Source of the DNA: a virus
Taxonomy: Duplodnaviria > Heunggongvirae > Uroviricota > Caudoviricetes
Virus record (IMG/VR): IMGVR_UViG_2563366964_000006
Reading direction: 5' to 3' (one strand)
Length of the DNA: 23,440 bases
The position numbers were made by a program, and so were the translations under genes. The notes under the pieces are model-generated. The model worked only from the letters and a program-made list of their open reading frames with translations, searched no databases and was not told the origin of the DNA. Positions 15,921-15,978 of this stretch are shown here, piece by piece; the stretch's first letter is position 1; each line of letters starts with the position of its first letter.

Positions 15921-15952
15921 GGTGCTGAGCGTACAGCACCACTAAAAAGGGA

Positions 15953-15978
15953 ATAAGTTGAAGGGGTTCAGTGATTAA
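15953..15978 (-). promoter_or_regulatory. Conserved motif (minus strand TTAATCACTGAACCCCTTCAACTTA), candidate late-promoter / activator-binding element upstream of the I-like gene
   Basis: Core 15957-15973 is identical to 4169-4185; ends 36 nt upstream of the ATG at 15920; followed by a 7-bp-stem hairpin at 15921-15940. Confidence 0.4.

Follow-up and report, generated by a model that had tools for sequence, protein, structure and literature searches.

The stretch of DNA analysed here, called the window in what follows, comprises 23,440 nucleotides and is the late region of a Mu-like myovirus prophage, whose genes, among them those for terminase, portal, F, G, I, T, sheath, tape measure and gp44-gp47, are all encoded on the minus strand. 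Gene I (14802-15920, minus strand) is the first gene of its operon and encodes the Mu-like head protease/scaffold (Pfam Mu-like_Pro, E-value 2.5e-94), and the ATG at 15920 is the earliest in-frame start possible for it. Between G and I lies a small conserved ORF (15975-16184, minus strand), which reads 69 aa from a GTG, is probably a membrane protein and has the protein motif TFKAFLDYFT..QWV..IG...TDRYF.RR.QKR. Its translation is conserved in a syntenic E. coli prophage (L008), which has about 82% identity to the window over I, and RefSeq places there a CDS on the opposite strand (L008 13753-13986) that looks like a misannotation. Elsewhere in the late region, the ORF of gp45 (4228-4947, minus strand) is listed with a GTG start at 4947 and an overlap of about 140 nt with gp44; the gp45 homologues in relatives have about 200 aa, so the true start of gp45 is probably more downstream. 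No intrinsic terminator was called between the small ORF and the promoter of I described below, and read-through from the upstream late operon into I is therefore expected.

Searching the whole window, we found the sequence CACTGAACCCCTTCAACT on the minus strand in two exact copies, where the chance expectation for such a repeat is 0.02, and an accidental repeat was accordingly rejected. Copy 2 (15973-15956), whose end adjoins the stop of the small ORF, is located directly 5' of I, and copy 1 (4185-4168) is located between gp45 and gp46. No third site of this kind is present in the window even with 3 mismatches permitted; only two copies are seen because the window stops inside the lysis region. 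An earlier note, made from the sequence alone, had described a motif present twice, each time together with a hairpin, and both the exact repeat and the stable hairpin at the start codon are real. The shared exact core which it reported also stands, but with a length of 18 bp instead of 17 bp, and the 'TTAAT' which it had added to the motif belongs outside the conserved element, for it varies among relatives and contains the TAA stop (15977-15975) of the small upstream ORF. Inside the motif there is a dyad, (C)TGAA-N4-TTCA, which in some relatives takes the form CTGAA-N4-TTCAG; its half-sites in copy 2 are TGAA at 15970-15967 and TTCA at 15962-15959 on the minus strand, with the centre between 15965 and 15964.

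The motif recurs in relatives of the prophage ahead of the same kinds of genes. The syntenic E. coli prophage carries CCACTGAACC(C/T)CTTCA ahead of the GH19 endolysin gene, I and gp46, one viral contig has three exact copies ahead of endolysin, I and gp46, and in the Klebsiella phage ST405-OXA48phi1.1 a variant, CCCACTGAAGCCCnTCAA, precedes endolysin, I and gp46. The third copy of the late-operon site, that before the endolysin, is hence one known from relatives, as the lys region is outside the window. Wherever the Plys region of a relative was inspected, a gemA-like gene, one Mor/C-family gene, a variable gene, the motif and the endolysin gene follow one another in this order, and a Mor/C-family protein (Pfam Mor, 3e-8) is encoded shortly 5' of Plys in every one of them. 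This protein has about 28% identity to Mu C over 75 residues and gives a weak alignment to both Mu C and Mor. The gene of a Mor/C-family activator is absent from the window itself, and the search of relatives for it did not return the near-identical contig IMGVR_UViG_2924938396_000007, which is the closest relative of the window. With regard to the scope of these comparisons, the metagenome scan with a 14-base pattern gave matches that were mostly due to chance, with L136 and L246 clearly useful, and the genome-contig scan was made with a single I protein and led to one locus.

Mor-like ORFs were seen at L008 4876-5310 as well as in L007, L012, L017, L019, L033, L040, L074, L076 and others, and they carry a passage resembling the beta-clamp-binding motif of Mu C, a motif which was recently reported (PMC12867686). 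Unlike Mu, which has Mor plus C, the relatives were seen to have one Mor/C gene only per prophage, and this suggests a cascade of two steps, not three.

Downstream of copy 2, the motif is followed by a spacer of 22 nt (15934-15955, minus strand), whose length is fixed and whose sequence is variable, and then by the predicted -10 hexamer TACGCT (15928-15933, minus strand), which is conserved in position. The spacer is 22 nt long in the tabulated CACTGAAC-motif sites and 23 nt in L139, with slight conservation of sequence. The corresponding predicted hexamer of copy 1 is TACTAT (4140-4145, minus strand), and the ATG at 4133 comes 6 nt after it. The second and sixth bases of the hexamer, A2 and T6, are invariant in 12/12 genuine I-class and 13/13 gp46-class sequences of the family and positions 3-5 vary, giving TACGCT, TATCGT, TAGTCT, TATTCT, TACTAT, TAGTAT, CATAGT and CATCAT. 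The consensus form is (T/C)AnnnT, which, judged by this pattern of conservation, is the signature of a -10 element, although TACGCT itself agrees with the consensus -10 at 3/6 positions only (T1, A2 and T6). At Plys the hexamer is (A/G)ATACT, often in the form TGnAATACT, namely an extended -10, and its offset from the motif is unchanged. A classical sigma-70 promoter was rejected, as no -35/-10 pair was called on the minus strand of the window.

The centre of the dyad is 31.5 bp 5' of the first base of the hexamer, so a hexamer placed, as predicted, at -12 to -7 puts the midpoint of the dyad at -43.5. In Mu, the C site is a 16-bp imperfect dyad with its centre at -43.5, and the late promoters have a -10 without a -35 (PMC2582627). 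The same arrangement is found here if the hexamer is the -10, in that, as in Plys, PI, PP and Pmom of Mu, an imperfect dyad at -43.5 overlaps the -35 region, a -10 occurs without a -35, and the sites precede late operons. Like Mu, the family has several copies of the site at the heads of late operons together with an activator of the Mor/C family, encoded in relatives, and like PI of Mu one of the sites is directly 5' of gene I. Unlike in Mu, where the third promoter is inside gene N before P, the third promoter here is before gp46. The core AACCCC is common to the motif and the Mu C box CATAACCCC, whereas the recognition sequence here is (C)TGAA-N4-TTCA; since the Mu C boxes (CCATAACCCC; PMC4461284 Table 1) have only AACCCC in common with the motif, we rejected it as a site of the Mu C protein itself.

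The motif, as far as sequence can tell, is an analogue of the Mu C site with different specificity, and the late-gene activator of this phage very likely binds to it, a prediction which rests on the motif's exact repetition, its being kept before lys, I and gp46 in relatives and its Mu C site geometry. The reading of 15919-15973 on the minus strand as a late promoter, that is, as the PI equivalent of a Mu-like prophage, appears well supported, and the suggestion made before of a late promoter for the head operon resembling Mu PI has gained support from the motif, the synteny, the Mor/C gene and the C-site geometry. Copy 1 (4168-4185, minus strand) marks the predicted promoter of the gp46 baseplate operon. 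A dimer of the Mor/C-family activator, encoded outside the window, would bind the dyad (C)TGAA-N4-TTCA at -43.5, and the bound activator would recruit or activate sigma-70 RNA polymerase at a promoter which has TACGCT as its -10 and has no -35.

As for translation, no Shine-Dalgarno sequence is evident at I and gp46, and among the well-supported genes of the window these two are the only ones without it. The anti-SD duplex energy is -2.8 kcal/mol for I and -1.7 kcal/mol for gp46, against -7 to -11.6 kcal/mol for the well-supported genes of the window, which bears out what had been remarked earlier on the missing Shine-Dalgarno sequence. Both genes have an ATG start, at 15920 and 4133 respectively. 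In the family the gap between hexamer and start codon is 7 nt for I (6 nt in L006) and 6 nt for gp46. When the upstream regions of gp46 were collected from homologues of 58-100% identity, nAnnnT preceded the start by 6-8 nt in 66/66 distinct regions, compared with 2-21/66 in control windows, and the hexamer occurs 6-8 nt before the start codon in 67/72 distinct upstream regions of I. What is more, the spacing of hexamer and start holds across lineages with differing dyads at the same distance, such as CCGAA-N4-TTCGG and GCTGACA-N2-TGTCAGC.

Since polymerase starts 7-8 nt past the -10, the transcript is predicted to begin at the A of the I ATG (15920, minus strand), which is the 8th nucleotide after the hexamer and would make C -1 and A +1, or possibly at C15921; the prediction comes from the spacing together with the usual distance from -10 to start. 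Transcription from PI would hence begin with the A of the start codon of I or with the nucleotide preceding it, and the resulting mRNA of the head protease/scaffold operon would be leaderless. We consider such a leaderless start of the I mRNA likely, and the missing Shine-Dalgarno sequence at I would be explained by it. This is different from PI of Mu, where the mapped start leaves roughly 23 nt of leader containing the Shine-Dalgarno sequence AGGA, while the start codon here is at the predicted +1/+2. The lambda cI transcript from PRM, a known leaderless mRNA, is alike in having the start codon at the 5' end (predicted in our case) and no Shine-Dalgarno sequence, with AUG in the two genes of the window; it is unlike in that a regulator gene is concerned there and long late structural operons here, that the start here is predicted, and that some relatives use GTG.

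Enterobacteria have few leaderless mRNAs and usually translate them weakly, so that such a message is odd for a structural operon. Some relatives have a gp46 whose start codon, at the predicted +1, is GTG; E. coli translates leaderless GUG poorly, and the GTG of these phages is hard to reconcile with leaderless translation in enterobacteria. Such GTG starts of gp46 were noted at L342 24629-24700 and in L030, L055 and L136, where the 5' arm of the hairpin described below carries the compensating base.

The start codons of I and gp46 are both involved in a hairpin. At copy 2 it consists of GGTGCTG (15940-15934), the loop TACGCT (15933-15928) and CAGCACC (15927-15921), with an RNA fold of -15.1 kcal/mol and z = -3.6 against dinucleotide shuffles, so the 7-bp hairpin at 15921-15940 noticed before as touching the start codon does exist. 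In fact it extends into the ATG, as the stem gains the two pairs G15942.U15919 and U15941-A15920, which bring the A and U of the ATG inside the stem. The complete hairpin (15919-15942, minus strand) has 9 pairs and a 6-nt loop, which is the predicted -10 hexamer; its 5' arm (15942-15934), part of the spacer, runs from -21 to -13, and its 3' arm covers -7 to +2, reaching into the start codon as far as its U. The hairpin of copy 1 (4125-4160, minus strand; -19.3 kcal/mol, z -5.8) has 11 pairs, encloses the -10 hexamer and buries the ATG of gp46 (4133-4131) in its 3' arm. When the start regions of the 24 genes in the window are compared, those of I (z -3.6) and gp46 (z -6.4) alone are markedly structured.

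A conserved hairpin that touches or covers the start codon could also be read in another way, namely that transcription starts 5' of it and the hairpin, placed in the leader of the I mRNA, controls initiation, which is the structure-dependent initiation named by the earlier note beside a leaderless one; the GTG starts of some relatives, ill suited to leaderless translation, would agree with this. However, the 22-nt spacer has no conserved -10-like hexamer, the sole invariant nAnnnT being the hairpin loop itself, a start 5' of 15942 would place the dyad at about -20 to -30, which is incompatible with activation of the Mor/C type, and the extended -10 in the Plys versions fixes the offset of the hexamer. 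We hold a leader hairpin of this kind to be quite unlikely. The two initiation ways proposed before have accordingly parted: the leaderless one is favoured by the spacing of 6-7 nt between hexamer and ATG in many lineages, and the structure-dependent one is unlikely on the PI mRNA, because the loop of the hairpin is the -10 hexamer and the hairpin would lie outside the PI transcript.

The hairpins are conserved to different degrees in the two classes. For the gp46 class (29 sequences), 86.8% of cells pair, compared with 30-45% in slid controls, double changes occur in 6/11 pairs, and 0/500 shuffles reach the observed value; where the gp46 start changes from ATG to GTG, the 5' arm has C in place of T. 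For the I class, compensatory stem variants such as GGTGCCG/CGGCACC and ACACCGG/CUGGUGU are found in relatives, and the hairpin is weaker, with a median z of -2.15, 42% of sequences having z > -2, and shifts of register between lineages. Because of these shifts, fixed-column covariation was dropped for this class and it was scored by the z of each sequence. The comparison of G.U pairs on the sense and antisense strands gives an equivocal answer as to an RNA-level role of the hairpin, with a preference for the sense strand that is seen in the close family but not in distant lineages. A known RNA family was rejected, since the Rfam covariance models gave no match anywhere in the window at the gathering threshold, nor any between 15850 and 16050 at E<=1.

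That the repeat acts as DNA is an alternative with some observations on its side, for it exactly straddles the -10, the wobble pairs of distant lineages occur on either strand, and C was reported to distort promoter DNA (PMC4461284); a cruciform driven by supercoiling, or an altered melting of the -10, would then keep the promoter silent or make it dependent on supercoiling or on the activator. Against it speak loop lengths from 3 to 18 nt, the bulges and the changes of register, and at Plys the loops of 10-13 nt, with the 3' arm 20-30 bp downstream, are poor for cruciform extrusion and fine for RNA, so we find such a role on DNA very improbable. An RNA role might also concern the upstream transcript only, in which the hairpin would serve the lys-head RNA as a stabiliser of the 3' end, a processing site or a terminator-like boundary. 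It does stand at an operon boundary without a separate terminator, and Mu has a predicted terminator just 5' of PI. However, the stem is followed by ATGAAACTAAC without a U-tract and no intrinsic terminator was called on the minus strand, by which the terminator reading is excluded, and in all three promoter classes the 3' arm covers the start region or the start codon, which a stabiliser would not need. A service to the upstream RNA is therefore unlikely.

The reading which we prefer is that the hairpin concerns the translation of I in read-through RNA. Its 3' arm lies over the translation start and its 5' arm is 5' of the predicted transcription start; because of the latter it would form only in transcripts running in from the upstream late (lys-head) operon, where it would bury the start codon of I, with the consequence that I would be translated only from RNA started at PI. 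We infer from these analyses that the hairpin may mask the start codon of I in read-through RNA, in other words provide a fold-back insulation, and the hairpin overlapping the promoter probably silences this RNA. At Plys, where a stem of 9-12 bp pairs the end of the -10, the discriminator and +1 to +3 with the bases just 5' of the lys ATG, the read-through RNA of 28 sequences folds with a mean of -18.0 kcal/mol, compared with -3.6 kcal/mol from the predicted +1, and the translation start region of lys is about twice as accessible in the RNA from the predicted +1. Insulation makes the most evident sense for the endolysin; for I the rationale is weaker and the gain harder to see than for lys, because its read-through RNA would come from another late promoter.

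In Mu itself, where the starts of Plys and PI are mapped, both promoters have inverted repeats whose 5' arms end at +1, and the read-through RNA has -13.9 kcal/mol compared with -3.1 kcal/mol from +1 for Plys, and -15.3 compared with -1.5 kcal/mol for PI. The Mu repeats (L010 1445-1485 and 9019-9050) are GCCATC/GATGGC over the lys ATG and CTGCTCA/TGAGCAG beside the Shine-Dalgarno sequence of I. There is also a likeness to IS10 and IS50, which are guarded against outside transcription (Davis, Simons & Kleckner 1985, cited in PMC13181058). There too, the 5' arm of an inverted repeat is 5' of the element's own start, and only the read-through RNA folds and hides the translation start; a transposase is concerned in IS10 and IS50, whereas phage late operons are concerned here and a bare start codon is the predicted target of occlusion.

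Within Mu, com-mom is a further system where the start region of a late gene is occluded by a hairpin, and the mom mRNA has a Com site plus a translation-inhibition structure. The combination of the motif and a downstream hairpin at the start codon resembles this, so that one might take the motif, instead of a promoter element, as an RNA site for a translational activator like Com that opens the hairpin. Against such a site stand the dyad symmetry of the motif, its fixed distance to a -10-like hexamer and the AACCCC it has in common with the Mu C box, and at Plys the start codon is 25-35 nt more distant with the distance between motif and hexamer unchanged. Unlike in com-mom, no sign of an RNA-binding activator came up here and the conserved motif behaves as a DNA site, and we give the Com-like alternative hardly any credence.

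Taken together, a PI activated by a Mor/C-family protein, a leaderless I mRNA and a fold-back hairpin insulating the read-through RNA form the model to which we assign a probability of roughly 0.7 as a whole. A broader proposition can be put forward tentatively, with rather more doubt than confidence: in a large Mu-like group, possibly including Mu, the core of the late promoter from -10 to +1 would be the 5' arm or loop of a hairpin masking the start of the first gene, so that the origin of transcription would decide the translation of lys, I and gp46, with the mRNAs of I and gp46 leaderless. The Mu-type late promoter is itself already known; what would be new relative to Mu is the recognition sequence, the predicted leaderless start and the hairpin overlapping the promoter.

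These predictions offer a recognition sequence and a promoter layout for an uncharacterised branch of Mor/C activators, by which the late operons of many enterobacterial Mu-like prophages become predictable. If the start site is true, widespread and conserved leaderless mRNAs would head structural operons in phages of gamma-proteobacteria, where such mRNAs are considered rare. Meanwhile, the hairpins over the promoters suggest a way to tie the translation of the first late gene, notably that of the endolysin, to the correct promoter, which would avoid premature expression from early read-through, and as the mapped Plys and PI of Mu share the layout, it is testable in a classical model system. 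More distant gp46 homologues (L294, L303, L314, L323 and similar) have a Mu-like box, TAAACCCCGCTGA, at the activator position; their start codon is enclosed by a different hairpin, CCTGC...GCAGG, and cAnnnT precedes the ATG by 8 nt.
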